DNA of 64,000 bases from an uncultured virus (IMG/VR IMGVR_UViG_3300042934_000354). Its lineage: Duplodnaviria; Heunggongvirae; Uroviricota; Caudoviricetes. Location of the stretch: the IMG/VR virus record IMGVR_UViG_3300042934_000354, one strand, 5' to 3'. Positions within the stretch are counted from its first letter, which is position 1. Every line of letters starts with the position of its first letter. Positions 3,935 through 54,819 of this stretch are shown here, one piece after another. The notes beneath the pieces were generated by a model that was not told where the DNA came from, made no database searches, and worked only from the letters and a program-made list of their open reading frames with translations. The position numbers and the translations under genes are program-made.

Positions 3935-6900
3935 ATGACACTTGATTTCGAAGCACTACGCAAGAAACGCGGCGTGACCACTTCAGGAACAGGGGAATTT
4001 GATTTTGATGCATACCGCAATCGGAAAGTTACTGAAACGCCGGATGTTGAAAGAGTAACCGTTAACCCTATCTTGAAGAGTACGCTCAGTGGAGTGGGGA
4101 TCGGTGAAAAGCCAATGGAATTCCCTACTTATAGCCGTGCTGTTACGCCGAAACCAGAACCGAAAAAAGAAGAAAAAAGCACACTGAGCAAAGTCCTGGA
4201 TAACGTCAATGCATTTACGGACCGTGCAGCGAGCGCCACGACATTCGGCGGTACCGACCTTGTGGATCGATTGTTTGAGAAATTTGGACCTAAAGCATAT
4301 AGTGACGAGCTTAAAGAAAAAAGAGAGCGTTCCGAAAACCTTGGAGCAGCTGGGGCCGCAGCAGATGTGCTCGGCTCTCTGGTAAGTGGGCAGGCGGCAT
4401 ACAAGGCGGCAGGTGCGGCAGTAGATCCTTTAATCAAAACGTTACCTAAATTGACACAAAGTTTGATACGTGGAGGCGCTGCCGGTGCGGCGTTTGAATT
4501 TCCGCGGCAGGCTAATCAAGAAGCTGCGGAGTACCTGGGTGGAGCGCAGCAGAGTGTCCCGCAGCGCCTTAAAAATGTGGGCTTATCGGCGGCTCTTGGC
4601 GGTCTCACTGATTTAGGTATTGGCGCAGGCGGTCTCGCTGCATCTGGGATCAAGAACCCTGTGCTTGGTAAAGCGGTGGGCGGCGGTATCGGCGTAGGTA
4701 GCTTGGGCGCTGCACTGGGACTTGCAAATGAAGTCCAAGAAAAGGCGTCAGGACAACAACAATCTTTTGGTGGCAGGCTGGCGGATATCGGAAAGTACAC
4801 ATTGGCCGGGGCTGGATTAGGGATTGCTGGAGGTACAGCGGCAGCTACATTTATGCGTAACAAAGGTGTTCCGGAAGAAACGATTGCTGAAGTTCTCGCG
4901 CTACCAGAAGGACGCGGAACGATCCGTCAATCGGCTGCAGCTGAACGTGCCAGCGTACCGGCCGGAACTGATCCAATCATTAACCCATCTGACTTTACTC
5001 CGGAACCTCTGGGATTGCCGCAAGGTAACACTGTGGGGCCGACTGTGGCGCGCCGGGCAACGCAGACGAATGTTTATCGGCAGAAGTTTGAGAACCTCAT
5101 AAGAGAGGCACAGAAGCGTGAATTCAGCCCGGGACGCGAGGACATCGAGCTTGAAAACCTATGGTCTCAGATGGCTGAACGCAACGATCCGGGCTTAGAT
5201 GAACTGGTAGATCTGGCCTATCCGAAGCGCACCAATGTGCCACAACGAGGTATGGTTGGCGCGGCCAGGTCAAATCAGGAAATGCGTGAAGTGGCAGGAG
5301 TGGGCAATCCAGTCCGGAGCAGTGCCGACCGTAACCCTTCACAGGTGATCAGCCCGGCCGCGGCACCACAGACAGTTGCCGGACGCGCCGGAGGTACACC
5401 GCGAGCTGAAATATCTAGTATTCCGGATGTTCCTGTTTCTTCAGCACCGAGACAGCCCGTCCAGGAAAATGTTCCAACCCAAGCCATGAGCCGGGAACAG
5501 GACATCATGAATCGTATTAACAATTTGACACAGGATGATATTGAATACATCCAAAGTGGCCAGTTTGATCAGACGAAGTTACCTCCGGAAGTCTCGTCTA
5601 TCAGCAGACAGGAGCCAGCGGTAAGAGAACAAACTCCACTTGTAGATGCTGCTCCGGATGTAAATGCTCAACCGCAGAGCCAGGACATGTTCACGGATCT
5701 GTTCGGCGATCAGGGGTTAGGCATTTCATCCGGAGGAAGCTCAGCAAGAGTCGGTTCCGGACCGGTAGACACCGCAGATCAGATTGTCCGGCGCGGTATC
5801 AAGAACGACAAGCAAGGCATAAAGCAGGCGGCGGCAGCACAGGCTCGGGCGACCTATCAGAACCTTGTCGATAACCTTGATCCATTAAAACGGATCAGCG
5901 GTGACACATATGAGTCTGCTATGGATGCCACCCGGGCCAATAACCTTGCAAATACTGTTGTTCGTGACAAATTCGTGAATCTTGAAGGCGAAGTGATCGG
6001 CAACAGTTTGAACGATATCTTTAAAAAAGTGGCGCGGGGACAGGATAAGAACTTTATTGATTACCTCACGCTGCGACATGCAAAAACGCGCATGGCCCGG
6101 GGAGAACGGGTGTATGCAGAAAACCTTGATATGACTCCGGATAAGGTGCAGCAGCGCATCGACACATTAAACTCCCGTTACCCTGGATTCGAAGAGATCG
6201 CGAAGGAATGGGATAAATTCAATGATAACGTGCTGCGGGAGATCGGCGTAAAGGAAGGGTTGCTCTCGAATGAACTGTACAATGCGCTGCGGAAGAAGAA
6301 TCCGAATTACTCCCCAATGCGCCGGCAGTTCCTTCGTTCAGAAAAGCCCGGAAAGAACTTCATCCAGAAGACAACAAAATCATCATTCAGCGGTCAGAAA
6401 GCACCAATTCAGCAAGTCAGTCCTACCGGGTCCGTCCGGAACATCGTAGACCCGCGCAAATCCACCATTGAGTCCGTGGGCGCATGGACTAATGCAGCCC
6501 TACGTAACCGGACGATGCAGTCTATGGTAGATGCGATCAAGCGAGATCCGGAGGCATTCAAAGGTGTCGCTGAGATCATCCAGCAGCCGAAGAGTAAGGT
6601 GAATCTCAAGGATGTACTCACCAATGGTGGTCAGGACGACTTCTTAGAAGCGCTGGATGCAGACTTTAAGGACCTGTTCAGCACCGCAAAGGTAGACGGT
6701 GATAATGTAGTTCGAGCAATGGTCAACGGGGAACCGGTACACATCAAGGTACAGGATCCGGAGATTGTCAAAACGCTAATCGGCATGGGTCCACAGGCTT
6801 CCAACATCCTTATTGACACCATGTCTGCATTTTCTAACGCGACCAAGCGCGGTGCAACCGGTCTGCTGGCCCCGGCTTTTGCCATCAAGGGAGCGACAAT

Positions 6901-8386
6901 GGACCTTGCACAGTCTGCTATTCAGTCCAAAAACCCACCGAAGCAGATTGCATACACAATTTATTCCATCTTCAGCGGTATAGGTGATTCGCTGGGCATT
7001 AAAGGACTACGGAATTGGGCGCAGGAGTACCGCCGTGCTGGTGGTGGATACACAGCATCGCTAAAAGGGGATCGGCGCTTAGACACGGGAATATCCGATA
7101 TGACACGATACCCAAAATTGTCACCACAGAATGCAGTTAAAATTGGAGTAAAGGCCGTAAAAGCACCATTCAAAATACTCGAAGGAATAGGTAATATCGC
7201 TGAAAATGCACCGCGTATTGCTGCATCGAAAATAGAACGGCAGAGCCTCGGTAACCAGATCACGCCGCAGAATATCAGGCAGGCCATGAGCGCCGGGCGT
7301 GAAATTACTGTTAACTTCAGCCGGAAGGGTGCACTGACCCGGGATATTGAAGCATTCGTGCCTTACAACAATGCTGCAGTTCAGGGAACGTATCGTGTGC
7401 TACGTGCATTTAAGAATAATCCCGTCCGGACTGTGGCCGCAATCGGCACGCTAGCGGTACTTCCGAAGCTTTATGAATATTCCAAATTCGGTGATGATCC
7501 GGACTATCAGAATCTACCGGCCCGAGACCGTACGCGGTTCCTAATCGTCAAGAAGAACGATGATGGTACATTTGTCCGGATCCCAATGGAGCCAGCCTAC
7601 AACAGCTTTGGGGAGGCGACTATTGAAGCCTTAAGGTATTTCAAGGACAATGACCCAACGGCCTTCAAGGGAACAATGGACGCTTTGGCGAATGCCTGGA
7701 CACCTCCACTTGTGACTGGTGCGCTGCAAGGAGCAACTAAGGGTGGCGGAGCAGAGGGAAGTATTGCTGGGGTGGTCAATTCAACAGTAGCCGCACCGTT
7801 TGTCGCCTCTGTAGCAAACCAAAGTTTCACCGGTGCTCCTATCGTATCTCAGTCTCTCCAGGACCGCAGCAGACCGTATCAGTATGATGAACGCACCAGT
7901 GCTGTAGCGAAGAAGTTAGGACAGACGCTGGATATGTCGCCTCAGAAGGTAGATTACATTATTAAGGCGTACGGTGGAGACTTGGCCCGATTGGTTTTAC
8001 CATTGACTTCCGATCTTGGACAGGGCAACGTCCGAAACACGCTGCTGAAGAACTTCATTGTAGATCCGGAATTCAGCAACACCTTGACGGATGACTTCTA
8101 CGATGCCAAGGACAAACTGAATCAGGCATACGCTGATTTCAACGAGGCCGGGGCAGAATTACCTAAGTGGTATGATGATGACCTGAGAAAGGCGCTTAAT
8201 TCGACTGCGAAAGGATCGGTATCGAAGGAGCTTGCCGGACTGCGCGATTACAAGAAAGAAATCACCGCTGATAAATCACTGACAGACAAGCAGCGCACCG
8301 AGAAACTCCGGGAGGTTCAGAAGCAGATCAACGAAATCTACATCAACATCAACTCTGCGCTGAAAGAGTATGGGGTAATAAAATGA
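3935..8386 (+). CDS. Large ejection/polyvalent protein with LPD38-like C-terminal region
   Basis: 1483 aa; REITVNFSRKG...FVPYNNAAVQG and RIPME motifs; homolog of 46967-51514. Confidence 0.7.
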   Translation: MTLDFEALRKKRGVTTSGTGEFDFDAYRNRKVTETPDVERVTVNPILKSTLSGVGIGEKPMEFPTYSRAVTPKPEPKKEEKSTLSKVLDNVNAFTDRAASATTFGGTDLVDRLFEKFGPKAYSDELKEKRERSENLGAAGAAADVLGSLVSGQAAYKAAGAAVDPLIKTLPKLTQSLIRGGAAGAAFEFPRQANQEAAEYLGGAQQSVPQRLKNVGLSAALGGLTDLGIGAGGLAASGIKNPVLGKAVGGGIGVGSLGAALGLANEVQEKASGQQQSFGGRLADIGKYTLAGAGLGIAGGTAAATFMRNKGVPEETIAEVLALPEGRGTIRQSAAAERASVPAGTDPIINPSDFTPEPLGLPQGNTVGPTVARRATQTNVYRQKFENLIREAQKREFSPGREDIELENLWSQMAERNDPGLDELVDLAYPKRTNVPQRGMVGAARSNQEMREVAGVGNPVRSSADRNPSQVISPAAAPQTVAGRAGGTPRAEISSIPDVPVSSAPRQPVQENVPTQAMSREQDIMNRINNLTQDDIEYIQSGQFDQTKLPPEVSSISRQEPAVREQTPLVDAAPDVNAQPQSQDMFTDLFGDQGLGISSGGSSARVGSGPVDTADQIVRRGIKNDKQGIKQAAAAQARATYQNLVDNLDPLKRISGDTYESAMDATRANNLANTVVRDKFVNLEGEVIGNSLNDIFKKVARGQDKNFIDYLTLRHAKTRMARGERVYAENLDMTPDKVQQRIDTLNSRYPGFEEIAKEWDKFNDNVLREIGVKEGLLSNELYNALRKKNPNYSPMRRQFLRSEKPGKNFIQKTTKSSFSGQKAPIQQVSPTGSVRNIVDPRKSTIESVGAWTNAALRNRTMQSMVDAIKRDPEAFKGVAEIIQQPKSKVNLKDVLTNGGQDDFLEALDADFKDLFSTAKVDGDNVVRAMVNGEPVHIKVQDPEIVKTLIGMGPQASNILIDTMSAFSNATKRGATGLLAPAFAIKGATMDLAQSAIQSKNPPKQIAYTIYSIFSGIGDSLGIKGLRNWAQEYRRAGGGYTASLKGDRRLDTGISDMTRYPKLSPQNAVKIGVKAVKAPFKILEGIGNIAENAPRIAASKIERQSLGNQITPQNIRQAMSAGREITVNFSRKGALTRDIEAFVPYNNAAVQGTYRVLRAFKNNPVRTVAAIGTLAVLPKLYEYSKFGDDPDYQNLPARDRTRFLIVKKNDDGTFVRIPMEPAYNSFGEATIEALRYFKDNDPTAFKGTMDALANAWTPPLVTGALQGATKGGGAEGSIAGVVNSTVAAPFVASVANQSFTGAPIVSQSLQDRSRPYQYDERTSAVAKKLGQTLDMSPQKVDYIIKAYGGDLARLVLPLTSDLGQGNVRNTLLKNFIVDPEFSNTLTDDFYDAKDKLNQAYADFNEAGAELPKWYDDDLRKALNSTAKGSVSKELAGLRDYKKEITADKSLTDKQRTEKLREVQKQINEIYININSALKEYGVIK

Positions 8387-8535
8387 TCCAGTATGACGAA
8401 GCAGAATTTCTAAACCAAGCAGTATCAGACGAGACACTCTATCTGGTGCTGCTTTTTTGCGGCCCTGAAGTGAGGGACAAGTTACTATACGGCGGTGACG
8501 ATATTGTGGAATTGGATACAGTTTCTAGTCTATGA
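8383..8535 (+). CDS. Small acidic protein (50 aa) leading the lysis cassette
   Basis: ATGA overlap with the upstream stop; MIQYDEAEF matches MQYDETEF at 51514-51672. Confidence 0.55.
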   Translation: MIQYDEAEFLNQAVSDETLYLVLLFCGPEVRDKLLYGGDDIVELDTVSSL

Positions 8536-9715
8536 TCTGCCGTATTTCCTATACCGGTCAGCGGATAATTTCAAGTGGGACGCTGTAATCATCTTTTGCG
8601 TGTATCAAATCGGCCGAATCAGCGGAATGCGCCTCTTCAGAAATTACCTGGAGAGGCATTTTCCATATTTCCAGAGTGAGGAGGTTCAGTTTAAGTCATG
8701 GACCATCAAACAGATAACAAAACTAGGCGGGGATCCATTTCTACCCCAAAAAGAATACCGTGGTGCTGGGCGTTCAAGGAAGTTGCCAGCGAAGAACTTC
8801 GATTTATCTTCAATGAGATTACAGGGGGCGGACGCCCCGGAAAGGCGGTACCCGATGAAGACAGTCATAATTGACGGTGGTCATGGAAAGAAAGATTCTG
8901 GAGGCATAGGGGAAAGCGGTAAGCTTGAGAAGGACTTCAATCTATCCATGGTCCTGAAGGTCAATGAGCTGCTGAAGAAGAACCCGGAGATTAATGTAAT
9001 CCTCACACGCTCAACGGACGTATTTGTGGAGCTTGTAGACCGCGCCAAGATCGCCAATAAAGCGAAGGCAGACGTATTCCTATCTATCCATGCCAATGCC
9101 GGGGAACCACCTGCTAATGGCTCTGAGACGCTGTACACGAAGGATATGGACAAACCTTTCGCTACGATCATCCATAAATACCTGATGTCTGTGACCGGTC
9201 TCACCGACCGCAAATGCCGGTATCAGAACCTATCCGTATGCCGGAACACCACCATGCCCGCGGCGCTGATCGAACCGGGATTCCTCACAAATCCAGCCGA
9301 AGAAGAATTGCTCTTTAATGAAGAGTTTCAAAATCGGCTTGCTGTGGCGATGGCGCAGGGTATTTGCGAATACTTGGGCGTTAAATATGGAGTACGAATC
9401 ACTCCGCCCGGAACGTATCCGGTACCCATATTGATTGGAGAGATGTCGCCGTTTGATGGCCTGCTTATAGAAGGTAAAAGTTGGATTCCTGCTAAAGCAG
9501 TGCTGAACGCCCTGGGCGCTCGCTGGTCCTACGCACTGCGGAGTATCTATGTCGGTGACACAAAGGTCGATACGAAGAACTACGATGGCACCAGCTACAT
9601 TAAAGGGACGGATCTCCGGGACCTGGGCGTAGTTCGTGGTGTGTTTCTGGACCCGGATGCCATCAATACCAAACGAGTACTCATTTATCCAAAGGAGAGT
9701 GTGACAAATGAATGA
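8504..9715 (+). CDS. N-acetylmuramoyl-L-alanine amidase (Amidase_3 endolysin) with an in-frame hydrophobic N-terminal extension; internal start at 8855
   Basis: IDGGHG, EKDFNL, SIHANA, LIEPGF zinc-amidase motifs; SD-like sequences before both TTG 8504 and ATG 8855. Confidence 0.9.
   Translation: MWNWIQFLVYDLPYFLYRSADNFKWDAVIIFCVYQIGRISGMRLFRNYLERHFPYFQSEEVQFKSWTIKQITKLGGDPFLPQKEYRGAGRSRKLPAKNFDLSSMRLQGADAPERRYPMKTVIIDGGHGKKDSGGIGESGKLEKDFNLSMVLKVNELLKKNPEINVILTRSTDVFVELVDRAKIANKAKADVFLSIHANAGEPPANGSETLYTKDMDKPFATIIHKYLMSVTGLTDRKCRYQNLSVCRNTTMPAALIEPGFLTNPAEEELLFNEEFQNRLAVAMAQGICEYLGVKYGVRITPPGTYPVPILIGEMSPFDGLLIEGKSWIPAKAVLNALGARWSYALRSIYVGDTKVDTKNYDGTSYIKGTDLRDLGVVRGVFLDPDAINTKRVLIYPKESVTNE
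8698..8874 (+). CDS. Overlapping -1-frame ORF inside the endolysin extension (58 aa)
   Basis: Conserved with 51835-52047 (KE..S.EL..I...ITGG..PG..V.D), with synonymous third-position changes. Confidence 0.55.
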   Translation: MDHQTDNKTRRGSISTPKRIPWCWAFKEVASEELRFIFNEITGGGRPGKAVPDEDSHN

Positions 9716-9977
9716 TGCATTAAATCAGGTGCTTGCTTTGGCGACTGCCCTTACTGTATTCGTTACTGTCGTGCTGAATGGCGTGAAGGCAACTGTTACT
9801 CTTCCGAAGAACCTTATTCCGGTAATCGGCATTGTAATCGGTTTAGGGGTAGGTGCAGCGGCGTATATCTTCACTGACCTAGAATTGATTTACCGTCTAT
9901 GGGCTGGGGCCATCGCGGGGTTCTCTGCCACAGGGTTGTATGAGCTGCAAAAGAACAATCCCGGGACAACAAAATAA
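9708..9977 (+). CDS. Holin, Listeria A118 (Hol118)-like
   Basis: Three hydrophobic segments, WAGAIAG..ATGLYE motif, directly after the endolysin. Confidence 0.85.
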   Translation: MNDALNQVLALATALTVFVTVVLNGVKATVTLPKNLIPVIGIVIGLGVGAAAYIFTDLELIYRLWAGAIAGFSATGLYELQKNNPGTTK

Positions 9978-10578: not shown

Positions 10579-10632
10579 ATCGTGTGCGAATTGATATCTA
10601 TGGAAAACCGTACATAACAATCTACACACGAT
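10579..10632. other. attP-like serine-integrase site, central dinucleotide AA
   Basis: 54-bp imperfect palindrome ATCGTGTG...TTGATATCTATGG-AAAA-CCGTACATAACAA...CACACGAT abutting the integrase stop. Confidence 0.75.
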
Positions 10633-12116
10633 TAATTGAAAATAACACTCTGAATAGACGCCGGAATGAACTTTCCTTTCTTGCCATGTGCTTTATCGAG
10701 TGGTGTGTATAACGTGATTTCCTTGAAGATATCCAGGATCATTTCATGCTTATCTACATCATCCATCTGGTCCCATACTTCAGGCAGGCCGAATAAGATT
10801 TCATTCTGCTCTGCAAAATCCTCTATGTGCACATCCGGCATTTTAGCGAGCTCATCCATCAGCAATTCCTCATTCTGCTTTTCATCGGCGTTGTGATCCC
10901 GCAGTTCCTCTTGGGAGATCAAATCATCGGCATACATACGCTGCCACTTCTTGCGCCGGTCCCGGACCTTATCTAGCTCTCTTACCAGATCCTTGCGCAG
11001 ATCAACCACCGGATCTTCTTCAGCCGTTGCGGCCAATTCCCGGATCGCTGAATAATCTGTGGATAACCTTTCGCCAATCCATTCCAGCAGCAGCGACTCC
11101 ACCAACTCCTGGCGAAACATTGGCATGGTGCATCCTTTACCAGTCTGGCGCCCGGAGCAGATATAAGACAGAATCTTATTGTAGCTGCCATCCTGGCGTT
11201 TGTTCTGGTGGTACCGGCCGGACATCTTCCCGCCGCACTTGCTGCACTTCAGCACACCGCTGAACCAGTATTCCCGAACCTTAGAGTGTCCGGTGAATGA
11301 TCGGCGCTTCATTTCCTCTTTGTGCTCCTGATACTCTTCCCAGGTAAAGGTTAAATCCTGTGTCCCATCCACGATCAGTACATCAACGTGCTCTTCCATT
11401 TTCCGATGTGCGTATTTCCCATTTGCTTTTTTAGTCCCGTATCTCCGTTTGCCTGCATAGTAAGGATTATCCAGTACATACCACACACTGAAGGAGGTCC
11501 ACCGGTACCCGCGCCGCAGCAGGCCCATATCGTTCAGTTTGGTTGCCACGCCTTTTAGTCCCAAGCCCTCCAAGTAAAATTTCCTTACCAGCCGATTCTG
11601 CGTGTATTCCTCTTGTACAATCTTTTCAAATTTGTCATACCCGAAGTTAACCGGACCGCCCGGACGCCGACCATCGTGGACCATCTGCTCCATGCCCATG
11701 CGTACGCGCTCTGCTGTGTTCTCACGCTCCCACTGAGCGATATCAGCCACTAGCCGGATAAATAGTCTACCTGTCGCTGTGCGTGTCTCAAACGACTCCG
11801 TACAGCTCTGAAACTTGACGTTATGGGACTCGAACATCTTGATGAGGTTATCGCAGTCACTGGCGGACCGGGTCATACGGTCAAGCTTATACACCAACAC
11901 CACATCAAATGCATGTATCTCCACATCTTTAATCATACGCTGCATCTCAGGGCGCTTCAGATCCTTTGCAGACCACCCATCATCTATGTACACCTCAGTG
12001 ACTTCCCAGTCCTGAGAATCGGCGTAGGCCAGCAGCCGGCGCTTCTGTGCGTCAATCGAGAATCCTTCAGCTGCTTGCTCGTCTGTAGATACCCTGATGT
12101 ATATTCCTGCTTTCAC
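10632..12116 (-). CDS. int: Large serine recombinase (integrase)
   Basis: YIRVST catalytic motif, VYKLDR.TRS, recombinase domain, CSKCGG zinc ribbon, coiled coil. Confidence 0.96.
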   Translation of the reverse strand: MKAGIYIRVSTDEQAAEGFSIDAQKRRLLAYADSQDWEVTEVYIDDGWSAKDLKRPEMQRMIKDVEIHAFDVVLVYKLDRMTRSASDCDNLIKMFESHNVKFQSCTESFETRTATGRLFIRLVADIAQWERENTAERVRMGMEQMVHDGRRPGGPVNFGYDKFEKIVQEEYTQNRLVRKFYLEGLGLKGVATKLNDMGLLRRGYRWTSFSVWYVLDNPYYAGKRRYGTKKANGKYAHRKMEEHVDVLIVDGTQDLTFTWEEYQEHKEEMKRRSFTGHSKVREYWFSGVLKCSKCGGKMSGRYHQNKRQDGSYNKILSYICSGRQTGKGCTMPMFRQELVESLLLEWIGERLSTDYSAIRELAATAEEDPVVDLRKDLVRELDKVRDRRKKWQRMYADDLISQEELRDHNADEKQNEELLMDELAKMPDVHIEDFAEQNEILFGLPEVWDQMDDVDKHEMILDIFKEITLYTPLDKAHGKKGKFIPASIQSVIFN

Positions 12117-46546: not shown

Positions 46547-46962
46547 CGTCCGGCGTAGCATCCGTTAAGGTGCCGACAAAATACGCCGGAGTAATATCGT
46601 CGGCAACAAGTAAGTATGGACTACCAGATGGGTTGCTTGCTGCTGTCGCCAGTGCGGAGTCTAGCTTCAATCCTAACGCAACCAACAGCAAGAGCGGAGC
46701 CTCAGGCATGTTCCAGTTCATGCCAGCGACAGCCAAGGGCTACAATATTGATCCATACAACGTGAATCAAGCTGCAGACGCCGCTGGGAAAATGTTGAAC
46801 GGACTCATTGCCAAGTATGATGGAGATGTTTCCAAAGCACTGGCAGGCTACAACTGGGGCGGTGGGAATGTAGACAAGGCAGTAAAGAAATACGGCAACA
46901 ATTGGTTACAACATGCGCCTACAGAAACAAAGAACTACATCAAAAAAATATTAGGACGGTGA
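46543..46962 (+). CDS. Lytic transglycosylase (SLT/GH23) domain, probably a -1 frameshift extension
   Basis: AESSFNPNA...GASGMFQFMP.TA...ALAGYNWG...ETKNY; frame open from the slip site; no SD at GTG 46570. Confidence 0.85.
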   Translation, partial: VTSGVASVKVPTKYAGVISSATSKYGLPDGLLAAVASAESSFNPNATNSKSGASGMFQFMPATAKGYNIDPYNVNQAADAAGKMLNGLIAKYDGDVSKALAGYNWGGGNVDKAVKKYGNNWLQHAPTETKNYIKKILGR

Positions 46963-46966
46963 GGAA

Positions 46967-49900
46967 ATGGCCACTTTTGACGCAGTTCGCAATCGAAAAA
47001 GGGGTGAAGAGGCCAAGCAGCGCGTGCTGTCTCGGACCTATTCACCTGCAGAGGAACAGCCAGAAAGTTCATTTTCTGCCGTCCGTAATCGAAAGGTTAC
47101 AGATACAACATCTACAGACTCAGCAGAATCATCCAGAACAAAGGAGATCCTTGGTGACACACTGGCAGGAGTCGGTATTGGTTCACAGCCGCAGGGATTC
47201 AACACTACTCCGGATCCGCAGAAGACGATTGATTTCAAAGCAGAACAATCTAAGAAAAACGCATCTGTATTTCAGGATAAGCTACCGGCCGCCAACCTGA
47301 TCCAAACCGGCCAGGGAGTTCAATCCACACTGAAGGATAAAGTTCCAGCAGCCAACCTCGTGCAGCAGACCGGACGCGGACCGGCTAATGCTTCAAACAT
47401 CCCTGGAGTTTCGCAATATGAGATCACCAAGAAAGAAATAGCCAACGACTCTGTGCCGTACGCAGTTAAAGCATACGCGAATATCATGAACTACATCACA
47501 CAGGGTAATCCAGCAGTGGTGGCGGTGTCCCGGGCTTTTGCTGGTAACTCTGGTGCGACCCGTAGAGACACTACAAAATTCCCTGTAATTGACAAGGTGA
47601 CCGATGCAATTAACAACTTTGTGACACCTTTTGTGACACCTACAGGTGCGCCAGTGGGCCAAGGCATTATCGGATCAACGTATGGAGCGACAGAGAAGGC
47701 GTTGAGCGGTAAAGCTGGGCAATCCATTCTCAACGCAGCTAGCAAAGTTATTCCGGGTTCACAGAACGTTGCGCGTGTGACAGCCACAGAGGCGCTTGCA
47801 GGCGGCATGCAGGGTGTAGGATTCGGGCTGCAACAAGGACAAGACAGCGGCAACGAAATCGCCCGTAACGCCCTCTTAGGGACCGCGGCAGGCGGTGTAC
47901 TTGGTGGTATAGGCGCTGCAGCCAGCGAAGGACTCACATCTGCACTCAGCAAGATCATGAAGAGATCCGGCCGGGCAGATGATGAAGTCGCCGCAACGCT
48001 GGAAGAAGTATTTACACCTCGTCAGGCGGAGATTGTACCGCAAAGCGAAATCAGAAATAACCTGCCTGAAACGAATCCTTTAGCTCTGCCACAATCACCT
48101 GAACTGTTGGCACTACCACCTGGACGAAGTACAGCCACGACAGCACGTATTGAACAACGTACCAACGTGTACCGGCAGAAGTTCGAAAACCTTATTGCTG
48201 AAGCACAAAAGCGTCCATTAACACCGGGTCGCGAAGACTTGGAACTGGAGAACATATGGTCCCAAATGGCTGACCGCACGGATCCAAGCCTCAACGAACT
48301 GATTGATCTGGCTTATCCGAAACGTACCGCCGTTCCGCAGAAAGGTATGGTCGGCGCGGCCCGAGCCAATCAAGAAATGCGCGAGGTGGCAGGTGTAGGA
48401 AACCCAGTTAAAAGTTCAGCTCCGCAGGTGTTTGCTGATGCTGCTGCACCAACGCAGGTATTGGGCAGAAGGGGTTCGGTTGGTACGTCATCCGAAGGGA
48501 CGATCAGAAGCAGCACTTTGACGCGTGAACAGGAAATCATGAACAAGGTCAATGCAAAGCAGCCTCTGACGCAAGCAGACATTGAGTTTGCCCAAAGTGC
48601 GGAGTTTGATAAAAACAAGTTATTCCCTGAGTCCACGCCTGAGAAATCAACCTATGCCAAAGCGAGACCAGCACAGCCGGAAGTAAAGTCACCTTCTAAG
48701 CCAGAACCGGTAATGAAATCAACTCCGAAAAATGAGGTTCAGGAAGTTGAAGAAGCTATCAAAGCTGTCAATCAGCCTAATGTCCGGGACAAGGTTTACT
48801 CTTACCTGGATGAAGCAGAAAAGGCAGCTAGAGAGCGCATAGCCAAGCGCAAAGGATATCTGAACTCCAGTCCTTTGCCGGAGTGGGCGGACTACGCGGT
48901 GATTATGGCGGCCAAACTCGGTAAGGGAACAATCAAGGTCGCGAACTTCACAGAGGAACTGGTTAAGGAATTCGGTGAATCTGCCCGGCCACATGCAGAA
49001 AAAATACTTCGTATGAGCCGGGAGGAACTGCGTAAACAGGAACGATTGGCGAGTAAAGAAGGTAAATCAGCAGTTGAATTCAATGCTAAACCTGAAGGTG
49101 ATGCCGCCTCGTTCGCTGAGAAAATCAGCCGTAACGCACCGAAAAAGTCAACTCCATTTGCGGAACGGTGGCAAAAGTGGCGTACACAGACTACAGACGA
49201 CCTAGCAGCCTTGGAGACGGTCGAAAAGAACGTTCGTGGTGGAAAGTTATCCAGCGCAGAAGACAGCCTTTATAAGGCAGCTAGAATGTTCAAAGGAGCG
49301 CCGGAACGTGCCAGCCAAATTGTGCAGGACCGATTAGGATCGGTAATCAATAAGGTTGAACAGGCCGGAAACTCCGTGGAGGACCTAGAATTGTATGCTC
49401 TTGCTAAACATGCACAGGATGTGAATGCAGCCGGATATAAATCTGGATTTACTAACCAAGAAATCAAGTCCATTCTGAATGAATTCGGATCTGATGAAAT
49501 GAAAGCAGCACAGCAAGAACTGGTTAAGGTAAACCGCGATATGCTGAAAGAATTGTTGGACAGTGGGGTAGTTTCACAAGAACTATATGATGTGCTGGGC
49601 GAACGTTGGAAGAATTACATTCCGTTGTTCCGAGAAATGGATAATGAAAAGGTAGGGTTCGGCGATGGACTGTCGAGCGCACTTGCCAATGTAACCAGCC
49701 CGATCAAGGCGCTGCAGGGGTCGGAACGAAAGGTCATTGCACCACTGGAAAACATGGTGAAGAACATCTTCCAGAGTGTTAATGCGGCAGAACGAAACAA
49801 GGTGGCTCAGCAGATTACGAAGCTTGCTGAACTGGACGAGAACGGGACATATATCCGCAAACTCACCAATGCTGAACAAGTTGGAGAGAAAAACGTAGTC

Positions 49901-51514
49901 AAGGTTAAAGTCGATGGCAAGGAAGTTCGGTACGAGGTGCAGCCAGAGGTATACAAAGCTCTGATGAACCTTGATCAAGAGTCCAGTAATACGCTGATGA
50001 ACATCCTATCTAAGCCTGCCAGTCTACTACGTGCCGGAGCTACCATAACACCAGAGTTCGCGCTTCGAAACCCGATCCGAGATATTAACAACGCCTTTGT
50101 TGTCTCAGAGAGTGGCTTCAATCCTATTACTGACTTTGGTGCCGGTCTGATACAGACAATCAAGAAGGGACCTCTGTATAAGGACTGGATTGATAACCTG
50201 GGAGCTTACGGTAATACACTTTCGCTGGATAGAAATGTCCACAAAAAAGCCTTAGAAACCGTACTGAAGCAGCCAAATTCAAAGAAATTTGTCAATTTGG
50301 TGAATGGAAAATCACTCATCGGACTGCTGAGGTCGATTTCAGACACAACCGAATCAGCAACTAAGGTCGGAGAGTACCGGGCTGCGCTACGTTCCGGCGC
50401 GAGCAAACAAGAGGCAGCGTATCGTTCGAGGGATTTGATGGACTTTGCCAGGGCAGGATCTAGCATACGCCCAACTAATAGAATAGTTGCTTTTTTGAAT
50501 GCAAACATTCAGGGGAAATCAAAACTTATCCGAGCTATTAAAAACGATTGGGTTGGCGTTACTACTCGAGGGATTGTATCGGTAACGGTTCCGACAATTG
50601 GGATATTCATCTTGAACCACAAGTATGCTAACGATACACAGAAATCCACCATCAGCAACGCCCCGGACTGGATGAAGGATTCATTCTGGTTGATGGCCAT
50701 ACCTGGAACGGATACAGTAGCGCGAATACCAAAACCATTCGATCTGGCAACATTGTTTGCAAATTTGCCAGAAAAAGCACTGTCTTTTGTTTTGGATAAA
50801 GATCCTGAAGCATTCGATGGATATGTAAGGCGATCTATCAAAAGCAATGCTTTACCAACCCAAATATCCGGTATACTGCCAGTAATTGAAGGGATGTCTA
50901 ACTATTCATTCTTTAAGGAAGGATCAATTATTCCTAAGGCAGAGCAAGGATTACAGTACAAAGACCAGTACGATCCGGTTCGCACCACATCTACGGCCCG
51001 GATTATTGCGGGAGGAGTAGATAAATTGACCGGAGGAAAGGGATCGTTCAAGAACTTCAGCTCTCCGCGGGTGATCGATAATACACTGCAGGGCCTGACG
51101 GCTGGACTTGGTAAATATGCCACCGATGCCATTGATATCATTCTTGATAAAACAGGAGCATATGAACGAACCACAAAGCCAGCAAAGTCCATTGAACAAG
51201 CGCCGTTCACAAGATCGTTTCTGGTTGATCCAAATCAGGGCGGCAAGGCTATGGATAAATTTTATTCATTGAAAGACAAACTCACGAAGGAAAAGTCTTC
51301 CTCCAAACTGAATAAGGTTCCGTTCAAAAAACTGAGCGAATTGGAACGGATCAATAATGTTTCCGAAGTAGTGAGCGACATAAATAAATCGATCAAGGCT
51401 ATAGAACGTGGTGAATTGTCAGCCAAGGAAAAGCAATTAAAGATTGAACCTTTAATCAAACGCCGGAATGACTTAGTGCAGCGCGTCACACAAAGCCTGA
51501 AGGACAAAAAATAA
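46967..51514 (+). CDS. Large ejection/polyvalent protein with LPD38-like region
   Basis: 1515 aa; RDLMDFARAG...FLNANIQG, RIPKPF motifs. Confidence 0.75.
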   Translation: MATFDAVRNRKRGEEAKQRVLSRTYSPAEEQPESSFSAVRNRKVTDTTSTDSAESSRTKEILGDTLAGVGIGSQPQGFNTTPDPQKTIDFKAEQSKKNASVFQDKLPAANLIQTGQGVQSTLKDKVPAANLVQQTGRGPANASNIPGVSQYEITKKEIANDSVPYAVKAYANIMNYITQGNPAVVAVSRAFAGNSGATRRDTTKFPVIDKVTDAINNFVTPFVTPTGAPVGQGIIGSTYGATEKALSGKAGQSILNAASKVIPGSQNVARVTATEALAGGMQGVGFGLQQGQDSGNEIARNALLGTAAGGVLGGIGAAASEGLTSALSKIMKRSGRADDEVAATLEEVFTPRQAEIVPQSEIRNNLPETNPLALPQSPELLALPPGRSTATTARIEQRTNVYRQKFENLIAEAQKRPLTPGREDLELENIWSQMADRTDPSLNELIDLAYPKRTAVPQKGMVGAARANQEMREVAGVGNPVKSSAPQVFADAAAPTQVLGRRGSVGTSSEGTIRSSTLTREQEIMNKVNAKQPLTQADIEFAQSAEFDKNKLFPESTPEKSTYAKARPAQPEVKSPSKPEPVMKSTPKNEVQEVEEAIKAVNQPNVRDKVYSYLDEAEKAARERIAKRKGYLNSSPLPEWADYAVIMAAKLGKGTIKVANFTEELVKEFGESARPHAEKILRMSREELRKQERLASKEGKSAVEFNAKPEGDAASFAEKISRNAPKKSTPFAERWQKWRTQTTDDLAALETVEKNVRGGKLSSAEDSLYKAARMFKGAPERASQIVQDRLGSVINKVEQAGNSVEDLELYALAKHAQDVNAAGYKSGFTNQEIKSILNEFGSDEMKAAQQELVKVNRDMLKELLDSGVVSQELYDVLGERWKNYIPLFREMDNEKVGFGDGLSSALANVTSPIKALQGSERKVIAPLENMVKNIFQSVNAAERNKVAQQITKLAELDENGTYIRKLTNAEQVGEKNVVKVKVDGKEVRYEVQPEVYKALMNLDQESSNTLMNILSKPASLLRAGATITPEFALRNPIRDINNAFVVSESGFNPITDFGAGLIQTIKKGPLYKDWIDNLGAYGNTLSLDRNVHKKALETVLKQPNSKKFVNLVNGKSLIGLLRSISDTTESATKVGEYRAALRSGASKQEAAYRSRDLMDFARAGSSIRPTNRIVAFLNANIQGKSKLIRAIKNDWVGVTTRGIVSVTVPTIGIFILNHKYANDTQKSTISNAPDWMKDSFWLMAIPGTDTVARIPKPFDLATLFANLPEKALSFVLDKDPEAFDGYVRRSIKSNALPTQISGILPVIEGMSNYSFFKEGSIIPKAEQGLQYKDQYDPVRTTSTARIIAGGVDKLTGGKGSFKNFSSPRVIDNTLQGLTAGLGKYATDAIDIILDKTGAYERTTKPAKSIEQAPFTRSFLVDPNQGGKAMDKFYSLKDKLTKEKSSSKLNKVPFKKLSELERINNVSEVVSDINKSIKAIERGELSAKEKQLKIEPLIKRRNDLVQRVTQSLKDKK

Positions 51515-51672
51515 TGGACAAATTAATGCAGTATGACGAAACCGAATTTCAAGACGGTCTAACCGCCTGGGCGCTGGACTGGATCACGCACCTATACGGG
51601 GCAGAGATGGCGGAGTTACTTGATCCGGAGGCGGTGCCAATCGATGTGGGGGACCATAGAGTCGCTGTATGA
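51514..51672 (+). CDS. Small acidic protein (52 aa) leading the lysis cassette
   Basis: TAATG coupling; homolog of 8383-8535. Confidence 0.55.
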   Translation: MDKLMQYDETEFQDGLTAWALDWITHLYGAEMAELLDPEAVPIDVGDHRVAV

Positions 51673-52858
51673 TCTGACGTACTTCATATTAAAGAACATG
51701 GAGGGCCTTAAATGGGAGGCCCTTTTGTTCTACCTATTTTACCTATACGGGAAACGCAGTGGTATGAAGATGTTCCGGAAGTTTCTGCAGGGACACTTCC
51801 CCTACCTTGCTGACGAAAATGAGGACTGGCGCAGATGGGCAACGAACCAAATCGAATTGTTAGGTGGTCGAAAATGGCAGCCAACGAAGCAGTATGGGCG
51901 TACCAAACGATTAAAGAGTCGGGCAGCGGAGAGCTCAACTATATCATTGACCTTATCACTGGAGGACACCCTCCGGGAAGGAGTGTTAAAGATGGCGAAG
52001 AAAAAAGTCAAAAAAGTAAAGATAGACCCGGGACACGGGGGGCATGACTCAGGAGCGATCAGCATCACCGGTGTGAAAGAAAAGGATATCAACCTTGCAA
52101 CGGCGCTGAAAATCGCTGAACTGCTCAAGCCAAACCCCAACATTGAATGTACTTTAACCCGGGACACAGACGTATTCATCGGTCTGAGCGAACGGGCGAA
52201 AATGGCGAATAAAGATAATGTTGATGCGTTCATTTCCATCCACGTGAATAGTTTCAAAGACACATCTACTGGCACCGAGACAGAATACACGCGGACCGGT
52301 GAGAGCGAGAAGTTGGCAAAGATTGTGCAGAAGCACCTGGTAAAGGCTACAGGCTTCAAGGATCGCGGCATTAACAAATACAACCTTGCAGTGACCAGGG
52401 AGACGACCATGGCCGCAGCGCTGACAGAGCCGGGCTATTTAAGCAACCCTGCGGAGGAACTGATATTGGTTTCCCCTGACTTCATCCCGCGCTATGCAGA
52501 GGCTGTAGCCCGGGGAGTATGCGAGTATCTGGAAATCCAATATGAGGCTGTTCCATCAAATACAAACCCAGTTACCGTACGCATCGGCGGCCTGGACATT
52601 GAGCAGCCGGGTATTATCATCGATGGCCGCAGCTGGGTACCGGCTAAGCTCACCTTAGGGATGTTGGGCTTCCTGCAATGGACCTTTTCAAACAAGACGA
52701 TCTTAATCAACGGAACACCGGTGGAGACCAAGATATACAACAATACCAGTTATATCCGATCTACGGACCTTATGACGCTCGGCCTAATCCGCAGCGTGTT
52801 TATGGAGCCGGACGCATCCAATCCAAAAAGAGTATTGATCATTCCGAAGGAGGGGTAA
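51644..52858 (+). CDS. Amidase_3 endolysin with in-frame N-terminal extension; internal start at 51992
   Basis: IDPGHGG, EKDINL, SIHVN, TEPGY; SDs before ATG 51644 and ATG 51992. Confidence 0.9.
   Translation: MWGTIESLYDLTYFILKNMEGLKWEALLFYLFYLYGKRSGMKMFRKFLQGHFPYLADENEDWRRWATNQIELLGGRKWQPTKQYGRTKRLKSRAAESSTISLTLSLEDTLREGVLKMAKKKVKKVKIDPGHGGHDSGAISITGVKEKDINLATALKIAELLKPNPNIECTLTRDTDVFIGLSERAKMANKDNVDAFISIHVNSFKDTSTGTETEYTRTGESEKLAKIVQKHLVKATGFKDRGINKYNLAVTRETTMAAALTEPGYLSNPAEELILVSPDFIPRYAEAVARGVCEYLEIQYEAVPSNTNPVTVRIGGLDIEQPGIIIDGRSWVPAKLTLGMLGFLQWTFSNKTILINGTPVETKIYNNTSYIRSTDLMTLGLIRSVFMEPDASNPKRVLIIPKEG
51835..52047 (+). CDS. Overlapping -1-frame ORF (70 aa)
   Basis: Conserved with 8698-8874. 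Confidence 0.55.
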   Translation: MGNEPNRIVRWSKMAANEAVWAYQTIKESGSGELNYIIDLITGGHPPGRSVKDGEEKSQKSKDRPGTRGA

Positions 52859-53281: not shown

Positions 53282-53335
53282 ATCGTGTGCGTCTTGATAT
53301 CTATGGATTACCGAAGATAACAAACTACACACGAT
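53282..53335. other. attP-like serine-integrase site, central dinucleotide TT
   Basis: ATCGTGTG...TTGATATCTATGG-ATTA-CCGAAGATAACAA...CACACGAT. Confidence 0.75.
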
Positions 53336-54819
53336 TAATTGAAAATAACACTCTGAATGGATGCCGGAATGAACTTACCTTTTCGGGCATGTGCTTTCTC
53401 AAGAGGTGTGTATAACGTAATTTCTTTGAAGATATCCAGAATCATGTCGTGCTTATCCACATCGTCCATCTGGTCCCATACTTCCGGTAGGCCAAACAGG
53501 ATTTCGTTCTGCTCTGCATAATCCTCTATGTGGACGTCCGGCATTTTTGCAAGCTCTGCCATCAGTAATTCCTCATTCTGCTTCTCATCAGCGTTGTGAT
53601 CCCGCAGTTCCTCCTGAGAGATCAGATCATCGGCGTACATGCGCTGCCACTTCTTGCGCCGGTCCCGGACCTTTTCAAGCTCCCTCGCCAAGTCCTTGCG
53701 CAGATCAACGACCGGATCTTCTTCTGCAGTTGCGGCCAGTTCCCGGATAGCTGAATAATCTGTGGATAACCTTTCACCAATCCATTCCAGCAGCAACGAC
53801 TCCACTAACTCCTGGCGGAACATCGGCATGGTGCATCCTTTCCCCGTCTGCCGGCCGGAACAGATATAGGATAGGATCTTATTGTAGCTGCCATCCTGGC
53901 GTTTGTTCTGGTGGTACCGTCCGGACATCTTGCCCCCGCACTTGCTGCACTTCAGCACACCGGAGAACCAGTATTCCCGAACCTTTGAGTGTCCGGTGAA
54001 TGATCGGCGCTTCATTTCTTCCTTATGTTCCAAATACTCTTCCCAGGTAAAGGTTAAATCCTGTGGACCATCCACAATCAGCACATCCACTTGCTCTTCC
54101 ATCTTGCGATTTGTGTACTTGCCGTTTGCTTTCTTGGACCCATATCTCCGTTTACCGGCATAGTAAGGGTTGTCCAGTACATACCAAACGCTGAAGGATG
54201 TCCACCGATACCCGCGCCGAAGCAGTCCCATATCGTTCAGTTTGGTTGCCACTCCCTTTAACCCCAATCCCTCCAGGTAAAATTTCCTGACCAGCCTATT
54301 CTGTGTATATTCCTCTTGGACAAGCTTTTCATTCTTGTCATACCCGAAGTTAACCGGACCGCCCGGCCGCCGTCCCTCGTGCACCATTTGCTCCATACCC
54401 ATGCGTACACGCTCTGCCGTGTTCTCACGCTCCCACTGAGCGATGTCGGCCACGAGGCGGATAAATAGTCTACCTGTCGCCGTGCGCGTCTCAAACGACT
54501 CCGTACAGCTCTGAAACTTGACATTGTGGGACTCGAACATCTTAATAAGATTGTCACAGTCACTGGCGGACCGGGTCATGCGGTCAAGCTTGTACACGAG
54601 CACCACGTCAAAAGCATGTATCTCCACGTCTTTGATCATACGCTGCATCTCAGGGCGCTTCAGATCCTTCGCGGACCATCCATCATCAATGTATACATCT
54701 GATACTTCCCAGTCCTGAGAATCGGCGTAGGCCAGCAGACGGCGCTTCTGTGCGTCAATCGAGAAACCTTCAGCTGCTTGCTCGTCCGTGGATACCCGGA
54801 TGTATATACCTGCTTTCAC
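53335..54819 (-). CDS. int: Large serine recombinase (integrase)
   Basis: Same length as, and nearly identical to, 10632-12116. Confidence 0.96.
   Translation of the reverse strand: MKAGIYIRVSTDEQAAEGFSIDAQKRRLLAYADSQDWEVSDVYIDDGWSAKDLKRPEMQRMIKDVEIHAFDVVLVYKLDRMTRSASDCDNLIKMFESHNVKFQSCTESFETRTATGRLFIRLVADIAQWERENTAERVRMGMEQMVHEGRRPGGPVNFGYDKNEKLVQEEYTQNRLVRKFYLEGLGLKGVATKLNDMGLLRRGYRWTSFSVWYVLDNPYYAGKRRYGSKKANGKYTNRKMEEQVDVLIVDGPQDLTFTWEEYLEHKEEMKRRSFTGHSKVREYWFSGVLKCSKCGGKMSGRYHQNKRQDGSYNKILSYICSGRQTGKGCTMPMFRQELVESLLLEWIGERLSTDYSAIRELAATAEEDPVVDLRKDLARELEKVRDRRKKWQRMYADDLISQEELRDHNADEKQNEELLMAELAKMPDVHIEDYAEQNEILFGLPEVWDQMDDVDKHDMILDIFKEITLYTPLEKAHARKGKFIPASIQSVIFN

Follow-up and report, generated by a model that had tools for sequence, protein, structure and literature searches.

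How many proteins does a Paenibacillus phage encode in the DNA that leads into its amidase gene, and in which reading frames, if conservation passes from one frame to another partway along it? This question was raised by a 64,000-nucleotide (nt) stretch from an uncultured virus of the Caudoviricetes (IMG/VR record IMGVR_UViG_3300042934_000354), here called the window, which holds two related phage genomes, P1 and P2, end to end. Both share an interlocked lysis locus, as a first-pass annotation of the window had described: a giant gene, an open reading frame (ORF) of about 50 amino acids (aa), an ORF without a stop in the frame of the amidase (frame 0), and the amidase itself. The comparative data given below favor, as a moderately probable reading, a nested lysis gene with three products in this group of Paenibacillus phages, that is, a long endolysin, a short endolysin from an internal in-frame start, and a small protein overprinted in the -1 frame. 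The elements concerned are as follows.

8504..9715, plus strand, P1 long endolysin ORF in frame 0, ~403 to 406 aa; the frame is open from 8474
8504..8758, plus strand, P1 N-terminal domain (N-domain) in frame 0, 85 aa; the last codon is the conserved Tyr, and four helices are predicted
8698..8874, plus strand, P1 overprinted -1-frame small ORF, 58 aa from ATG 8698; conserved core from ~8758
8759..8854, plus strand, P1 dual-coded stretch; a 32-codon linker in frame 0 and the conserved small-protein core in the -1 frame
8855..9715, plus strand, P1 short endolysin from the internal in-frame ATG, 286 aa; Amidase_3 domain and C-terminal part
51644..52858, plus strand, P2 long endolysin ORF in frame 0; ATG 51644 (51620 is also given as the 5' limit of the frame-0 ORF)
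up to 51895, plus strand, P2 N-domain, followed by 51896..51991, plus strand, P2 linker, both in frame 0
51835..52047, plus strand, P2 overprinted -1-frame small ORF, 70 aa from ATG 51835
51992..52858, plus strand, P2 short endolysin from the internal ATG, 288 aa; Amidase_3 domain; Shine-Dalgarno (SD) sequence GGAAGGAG 8 nt upstream

The enzymatic part had Amidase_3 (Pfam PF01520) scores of 174.3 and 172.5 bits in the P1 and P2 endolysins (cut-off, 27; E=3e-51 in P1) and PHROG matches to phrog_435, endolysin (E=3.8e-45 and 5.1e-46). The probable start of the long form in P1 is TTG 8504, which aligns with the ATG of relatives and has the SD sequence GGCGGTGA 5 nt upstream; GTG 8495 is an alternative. 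The short form starts at ATG 8855, with the SD-like AAGGCGGT 5 nt upstream, and not at 8866, where this ATG had been placed before. Positions 8874 and 52047, at which the first-pass annotation had ended its feature in the two genomes, are the stops of the -1 ORFs; the P1 stop, TGA, lies 20 nt beyond the internal endolysin ATG and the P2 stop 56 nt beyond it. The P2 small ORF has an alternative start at ATG 51874 (57 aa), with TAGGTGG 6 nt upstream.

Between P1 and P2, the frame-0 extension upstream of the amidase was 34% identical, and identities ceased past the motif LGG....P.K.Y. In the -1 frame, the two genomes had in common the block W...KE..S.EL..I...ITGG..PG..V.D. Over the 27 codons before the amidase ATG, 13 -1-frame residues were identical (one fewer than previously counted), and 10 of these were specified by different codons, as already reported. 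Frame 0 had 3 identities, again the earlier figure, 1 of them with a different codon, and the +1 frame had 6, of which 3 were recoded.

We looked for relatives of this arrangement in several collections. A tblastn search of the frame-0 extension and the -1 ORF against 50,697 phage records gave no match, while pattern and profile searches found the N-terminal extension in IMG/VR viral contigs, metagenome contigs, and Paenibacillus genomes. The initial scans yielded 7 loci in viral contigs and 1 in genome contigs; broader scans yielded 11 metagenome loci (one of them spurious) and 36 viral loci, and genome searches yielded hits in 8 of 401 genomes of the family (one spurious) and in 10 of 116 genomes of the genus. 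An exhaustive HMMER search over 1.84 billion representatives returned only 8 convincing relatives, which marks the family as a narrow one. Two spurious loci and two that end early were dropped, and the 62 loci gave 39 distinct aligned sequences; three further loci from the genus, inspected by eye, had the same layout, which brings the total to 42 distinct sequences drawn from isolate genomes, IMG/VR contigs, and metagenomes, all from one narrow phage clade. The nested architecture was identical in all 39 aligned sequences. The two loci with contigs that end too early for the alignment (L039 and L064) displayed the same layout in their visible part. Among the candidates rejected, L017 (E=6.5e-4, two TGA codons, unrelated sequence) was never in the aligned set, L028 (a 20-residue match within an unrelated ORF resembling a membrane protein) was removed from it, and the HMMER matches P0009 to P0018 (E from 8e-9 to 9e-4, 531 to 2216 aa, several with repeats) were taken as low-complexity or repeat matches.

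To follow the frame switch across the 39 sequences, we counted substitutions per alignment column by Fitch parsimony on their tree and summed them over five codons by frame-0 codon position, where position 3 is the third base of frame 0 and position 2 is the third base of the -1 frame. Throughout the N-domain, up to the conserved Tyr, changes were concentrated at frame-0 third bases (e.g., 8, 10, and 53 changes at positions 1, 2, and 3, or 16, 5, and 46). From two codons past the Tyr to the internal ATG, they were concentrated at -1-frame third bases (e.g., 13, 54, and 14, or 23, 79, and 24). The conserved frame changes after LGG....P.K.Y in the broader alignment as it does between P1 and P2, with third-base changes moving to the -1 frame rather than falling at random. 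In the 8 codons before the Tyr, frame-0 third-position changes were approximately halved, and this reduction in synonymous change suggests that both frames are read there. Past the Tyr, the -1-frame consensus was I[KR]E.GSEEL.YII[DE]IITGG.RPG[KR], and the mean pairwise identities of the two translations of the same DNA were 0.36 for the frame-0 linker and 0.57 for the -1 peptide. At the level of substitution patterns, the data show purifying selection on both frames, in adjacent segments.

In frame 0, the linker is poorly conserved yet always stop-free. Over the 33 -1-frame codons past the Tyr, none of the 39 sequences had a frame-0 stop. When we shuffled codons synonymously with the -1 peptide held fixed, drawing them from the usage of four window genes, frame 0 stayed open in 0.7 to 54% of trials depending on the sequence (2 to 15% for most and 2.1% for P2). 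As a control, the +1 frame had at least one stop over the same stretch in 35 of the 39. Before a codon that begins with A, Leu was encoded only by CTT or CTC, even though CTG is the most frequent of the Leu codons. Given this avoidance of frame-0 stops relative to the shuffles, together with the closed +1 frame, the long endolysin appears to be under selection, and by these sequence criteria, the long isoform is probably real. In every complete locus, frame 0 was open from the N-domain into an endolysin-sized ORF, the long forms measuring 396 to 429 aa; all indels before the endolysin start (upstream of alignment column 366) were multiples of three; and the internal ATG shared the frame of the N-domain whichever of several quite dissimilar endolysin N-termini followed. 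Stop avoidance, indel lengths, and the in-frame ATG together point to selection on the continuity of frame 0. The short form was also recognizable throughout: as claimed earlier for the amidase of the window, an internal Met with an SD-like motif of its own was found in 39 of 39 sequences (dG of -4.7 to -11.2 kcal/mol at a spacing of 4 to 9 nt for the Met chosen, scored with an anti-SD sequence not taken from this host).

How, then, is the -1 peptide made? Two possibilities had been put forward, an overlapping small gene and a second -1 frameshift, and the former is now the better supported on account of candidate starts of its own, SD-like sites, and a -1 frame that is open upstream of the switch. 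All 39 sequences had an ATG, GTG, or TTG between the last -1-frame stop and the conserved core, at alignment column 194, 203, or 242 depending on the lineage, and in 37 an SD-like motif lay 4 to 12 nt from the start. Upstream of the switch, over the 21 codons at columns 204 to 266, 37 of 39 sequences had no -1-frame stop; for comparison, synonymous shuffles of frame 0 left the -1 frame open at a mean of 0.32, and the +1 frame was open in none. The two exceptions (L026 and L060) had a TAA at column 239 and, directly after it, a GTG (column 242) that has TAGGTGG 6 nt upstream, and both belong to a clade with the proximal start. In the approximately ten lineages that lack the proximal start, the longer -1 stretch was open in all. 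In P1, P2, and all 39 aligned sequences, the -1 ORF lay wholly within the endolysin ORF, on the same strand and in another frame, and its stop fell 20 to 65 nt beyond the internal ATG in 39 of 39. Taken together, these features make it reasonably probable that the -1 peptide comes from an independently initiated, overprinted small gene.

Several observations weigh against this conclusion or weaken the numbers behind it. The position of the -1 start is not conserved (8 to ~24 residues before the conserved Trp). Frame-0 Trp codons with A or G before them supply the -1 starts, and the SD-like motifs are supplied by the codons of an acidic patch (GAG GAG) or of Leu-Gly-Gly, so that part of the evidence from starts and SD motifs comes nearly free, as a by-product of frame-0 codons. 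In L006 and L044, the only ATG abuts the SD motif (0 nt), and independent initiation looks poor in these two. A search of sequencing runs listed no RNA data set containing the region. In one database protein, P0008 (123 aa), N-domain and -1 peptide are continuous in a single frame. This singleton comes from one assembled contig (18,994 bp) and changes frame 15 codons upstream of the usual junction; its N-domain is in register with the -1 peptide from “VNKQ” onward, and its LGG..P.K.Y segment is read in the other frame. Rather than reflecting the normal product, P0008 is more likely to have arisen by a 1-nt indel or through faulty assembly. As for the statistics, the use of an anti-SD from outside this host and the four-gene basis of the shuffles count on the same side, and since the lineages are related, the per-sequence shuffle probabilities may not simply be multiplied. 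Despite this kinship, the contrast of the open frame 0 with the +1 frame is strong.

The principal alternative is programmed -1 recoding near the Tyr, by which some ribosomes would make an ~120-aa protein of N-domain plus C-peptide while the others, not shifted, made the fusion of N-domain and endolysin, as in the two dnaX products that share one N-domain. The last conserved Tyr of frame 0 and the first conserved Trp of the -1 frame do abut or overlap in TA-TGG, N-domain and C-peptide always occur together whichever endolysin type comes next, and an open frame 0 is what one would expect if both products matter. P0008, moreover, shows that N-domain and C-peptide can be encoded in one frame, and the lack of a well-spaced SD in L006 and L044 fits this alternative too. 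The usual signals were nevertheless missing, which also goes against the frameshift proposed in the first-pass annotation. A canonical in-frame X_XXY_YYZ heptamer was present at columns 228 to 296 in only 3 of 39 sequences, 13 of 39 lacked even a single-tRNA X_XXN site at columns 242 to 290 (and no such site was common across clades), RNAalifold found 0 conserved pairs between the LGG codons and the internal ATG in 24 diverse sequences, and frame 0 has no stop after the junction. By codon-anticodon rules, re-pairing of tRNA-Tyr at -1 (GUA or AUA) would be impossible. In-frame forms of N-domain plus C-peptide were otherwise absent, with this 1 singleton among ~5.8 billion clusters. Recoding also leaves unexplained both the 21-codon upstream opening of the -1 frame, given its chance of ~0.32, and the fact that the only two upstream -1 stops directly precede a GTG with an SD motif. 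We consider recoding unlikely on balance. Quite unlikely is its more specific form, in which the N-domain would receive one of two alternative C-termini, an ~35-aa regulatory tail or the endolysin, by recoding without heptamer or RNA fold; if this were true, the ratio of the two C-termini would set when and where the wall is cut; the frameshift signal would be of a new kind, and the means of timing lysis would be new as well.

Another possibility is that function is confined to the small -1 protein and the short endolysin, with the fusion a tolerated by-product of a lost stop, or with proteolysis freeing the N-domain. The low identity of the frame-0 linker compared to the -1 peptide, as well as the internal ATG and SD-like motif kept in every sequence, would agree with this, but a mere by-product would not be expected to avoid frame-0 stops in all 39 sequences while +1 is closed in 35, to have every indel a multiple of three, or to keep the internal ATG in frame with the N-domain across different endolysin N-termini, and we regard it as improbable. 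Artefact or decay, in the form of a sequencing or assembly frameshift, a pseudogene, or conservation of a ribosome-binding site (RBS) or RNA element that mimics -1 coding, could draw on two facts: the SD-like GGAAGG or GGAAAGG of the internal ATG falls on the codons that end the -1 peptide (PG[KR]), and the GG..P codons can form a GGNGG...CCNCC hairpin in some sequences. The same frame relation recurs, however, in 42 distinct sequences from several types of source, the three-base periodicity extends over ~32 codons, far longer than an RBS and beyond what an RBS or RNA element could produce, and the 24 sequences given to RNAalifold had no conserved RNA structure. The comparative data already contradict this explanation, and we give it hardly any credence.

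Regarding the hairpin itself, a 5-bp stem at the GG..P codons was seen in P1 (8823 to 8842, GGGGG/CCCCG), P2 (51962 to 51975, GGAGG/CCTCC), and L004 (GGTGG/CCACC; columns ~104 to 120 of the RNAalifold alignment), with the middle pair changing on both sides. It was absent in many sequences (e.g., L006, L009, and L013) and was not reported by RNAalifold.

Neither of the proteins specific to this arrangement resembled a known family. An AlphaFold2 model of the N-domain from 20 sequences had four helices at moderate confidence, with a predicted local distance difference test (pLDDT) score of 70 and a predicted template modeling (pTM) score of 0.38, and Foldseek found no match to it in the Protein Data Bank (PDB) at E<=0.001 (best, 4.7). 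When profiles were searched against PDB sequences, E values were no better than 0.22 for the N-domain and 0.93 for the small protein, nothing usable. The N-domain, the -1 ORFs, and the 50-aa ORFs all lacked a Pfam or PHROG family, the sole match being phrog_23321 at a chance-level E=0.022. In the ESM Atlas, the values were 0.75 for the small protein and 0.94 for the N-extension, the latter to unnamed clusters and with low recognition, and nothing was usable. An AlphaFold2 model of P0008 made without an alignment (pLDDT, 50.6) was not used.

The frame-0 ORF had been called hydrophobic, a description that holds only loosely: the best 19-residue Kyte-Doolittle mean of the N-domain was 0.77 to 1.42 in 20 of 20 sequences, compared to 2.29 and 2.62 for the holins of the window. 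Its hydrophobic runs were 11 to 13 residues long with charges on both sides, and no N-terminal transmembrane (TM) or signal segment was detected by hydropathy (20 of 20) or in the model, with its four short helices. With hydropathy so far below that of the holins, a membrane anchor is unsupported. Thus, of the earlier idea that the unshifted product is a membrane-tethered endolysin, the long form is supported, with frame 0 open in 39 of 39, while the tether is not supported, no segment being hydrophobic enough for a TM helix. The aromatic amphipathic helices of the modeled N-domain could touch the membrane or another protein. Nor does the -1 product look like the membrane protein that had been suggested: its maximum 19-residue mean ranged from -0.22 to 0.72 (20 of 20), it had no signal or lipobox-like hydrophobic stretch, and it is predicted to be soluble and near-neutral to acidic. 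The small protein consists of a short helix-like core ending in ITGG..PG[KR] and then a variable charged tail encoded across the endolysin start.

The nested three-product gene would therefore operate, as we see it, in the following way. The long endolysin of ~400 to 430 aa, made up of the ~85-aa four-helix N-domain, the ~32-aa linker, the Amidase_3 catalytic domain, and the C-terminal part, would be translated from a conserved (A/T)TG-TGG start behind a strong SD, while the internal in-frame ATG with its own SD would probably give an ordinary endolysin of ~290 to 310 aa. The end of the N-domain and the whole linker would be overprinted in the -1 frame by the independently initiated small gene, whose product would be a soluble protein of 45 to 70 aa with the core W.[YWF]..I[KR]E.GSEEL.YII[DE][IL]ITGG..PG[KR]. 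All three products would be made. The small protein might work together with the long isoform or act upon it, e.g., by partnering or regulating the N-domain, and ribosomes that terminate the small ORF just past the internal ATG might influence initiation of the short endolysin. A role in the timing or targeting of lysis, as originally proposed, would be in keeping with the position of these genes.

The lysis cassettes of phages are classic examples of compact gene regulation, and work is under way to develop endolysins into antibacterials. The 42 distinct sequences provide a well-replicated natural case of an endolysin linker overprinted by a conserved small protein of no known family, in which the linker frame would be selected only for staying open. 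If the three-product reading is true, it adds a new accessory lysis protein and a new N-terminal endolysin domain, as well as a clean model of two frames that share DNA, one constrained in sequence and the other in continuity. Gene callers miss the nested structure, giving either an “amidase” of more than 400 aa or a short amidase plus a hypothetical protein. Public annotation lists a 425-aa long form as amidase (P0019), and in Paenibacillus genomes, annotation pipelines call the -1 ORF a hypothetical protein of 47 to 99 aa (20 clusters). Another database entry, P0001 (115 aa), is identical to P0019 up to “...ANLSQG” and then diverges and ends; it, too, is probably an indel variant, and in it the long isoform would be truncated immediately upstream of the catalytic domain.

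The genes that surround the nested gene in P1 and P2 are as follows.

3935..8386, plus strand, P1 giant gene of virion-internal type, 1483 aa; phrog_9854 (unknown function); its stop overlaps the ATG of the next ORF (ATGA)
8383..8535, plus strand, P1 50-aa ORF, conserved in relatives; shares 32 nt with the beginning of the long endolysin ORF
9708..9977, plus strand, P1 holin, 89 aa, Phage_holin_5_1; overlaps the end of the endolysin gene
46967..51514, plus strand, P2 giant gene, 1515 aa; same layout as in P1
51514..51672, plus strand, P2 52-aa ORF, homologous in position and motif to 8383 to 8535 of P1
52861..53220, plus strand, P2 holin, 119 aa, Holin_LLH family, which differs from that of the P1 holin

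The small ORFs at 8383 to 8535 and 51514 to 51672 share the motif [QK][YF]DE.E....GPEV[RK]D.LL, are start-coupled to the giant gene, and have no Pfam or PHROG family. They cover the first ~10 codons of the long endolysin, where third-position variation was found only in the endolysin frame. The upstream genes of P2 include terminase, portal, major head, tail, and internal-virion-type genes. A 130-aa protein encoded immediately upstream of the 1515-aa gene (46570 to 46962, plus strand) matches lytic tail and transglycosylase PHROGs (E to 3.8e-37) as well as a PHROG of internal virion proteins with an endolysin domain, so that the phage carries a second wall hydrolase, of virion type, besides the amidase. 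Given these structural and internal-virion-type neighbors, among them the lytic-transglycosylase-like protein, the earlier label of “ejection gene” for the giant gene is plausible, although the sole match of the giant protein itself is to a PHROG of unknown function.

P1 and P2 have the same nested architecture with holins of different families, and among the relatives, the same N-domain and small ORF are paired with at least three divergent endolysin N-termini. As holins and endolysin N-termini vary around a shared N-domain and small ORF, points of mosaic exchange appear to lie at the internal ATG. The two genomes are otherwise mosaic relative to each other. Both are closed by a 494-aa serine recombinase on the minus strand (10632 to 12116 in P1 and 53335 to 54819 in P2; 475/494 residues, or 96%, identical). 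P2, at ~12.2 to 54.8 kb, matches a 42,176-bp IMG/VR record with terminal repeats. The pair looks like tandem prophages with the same type of integrase or a concatenated record. Similar 42-aa ORFs (MR[IL]DIYG.P.IT.YTRLIENNTLN...) lie at 10584 to 10712 and 53287 to 53415 (plus strand), over the 3' end region of both recombinase genes, and their likeness may reflect conserved DNA at a phage attachment or junction region.

A limited literature search found no description of such an arrangement in Paenibacillus phages, and we compared it with systems known elsewhere. The nearest precedent in kind is staphylococcal phage 187, in which a holin-like gene (hol187) is reportedly embedded out of frame in ply187. 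There, as here, a small gene of the lysis cassette lies wholly inside the endolysin ORF, in another frame of the same strand. In contrast to phage 187, as far as the title of its report tells, the product here is soluble rather than holin-like, a separate holin gene is found downstream, and the overprinting falls on a linker that joins an extra N-domain to the catalytic domain. The embedded spanin genes Rz and Rz1 of phage lambda are likewise a lysis gene nested out of frame in another lysis gene, with both frames conserved, but they belong to a Gram-negative outer-membrane system with a lipoprotein product, whereas our phages have a Gram-positive host, and their embedded protein lacks any hydrophobic stretch like that of a signal or lipobox. 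Programmed -1 frameshifts yield two products with a common N-terminus in dnaX (tau and gamma) and in the phage tail chaperones G and GT. Conservation passes from frame 0 to -1 in our case too, and a shifted product would share the N-domain; unlike in those genes, the defining signals were looked for and not found, and frame 0 continues past the junction.

With regard to the two endolysin forms, lysA of mycobacteriophage Ms6 is described as giving Lysin384 and Lysin241 from nested in-frame starts, the internal one with an RBS, and mutants that make a single form are viable but defective in lysis timing (PMC3111421). We saw no sequence relationship to Ms6 lysA in searches that were not aimed at it. 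The internal in-frame start with an RBS upstream of the catalytic domain is common to both systems (39 of 39 sequences here, where the products are predicted), while an out-of-frame gene over the isoform-specific part is not reported there for Ms6 (PMC3111421). Internal translation starts also produce the hetero-oligomeric endolysins Lys170, CD27L, and CTP1L (PMC6023083). These enzymes are a looser parallel, resembling the present case in that several polypeptides come from one lysis gene by alternative starts (PMC6023083). Their extra product is the same-frame C-terminal wall-binding domain (PMC6023083), whereas the extra product predicted here comes from the -1 frame and has no residue in common with the enzyme.

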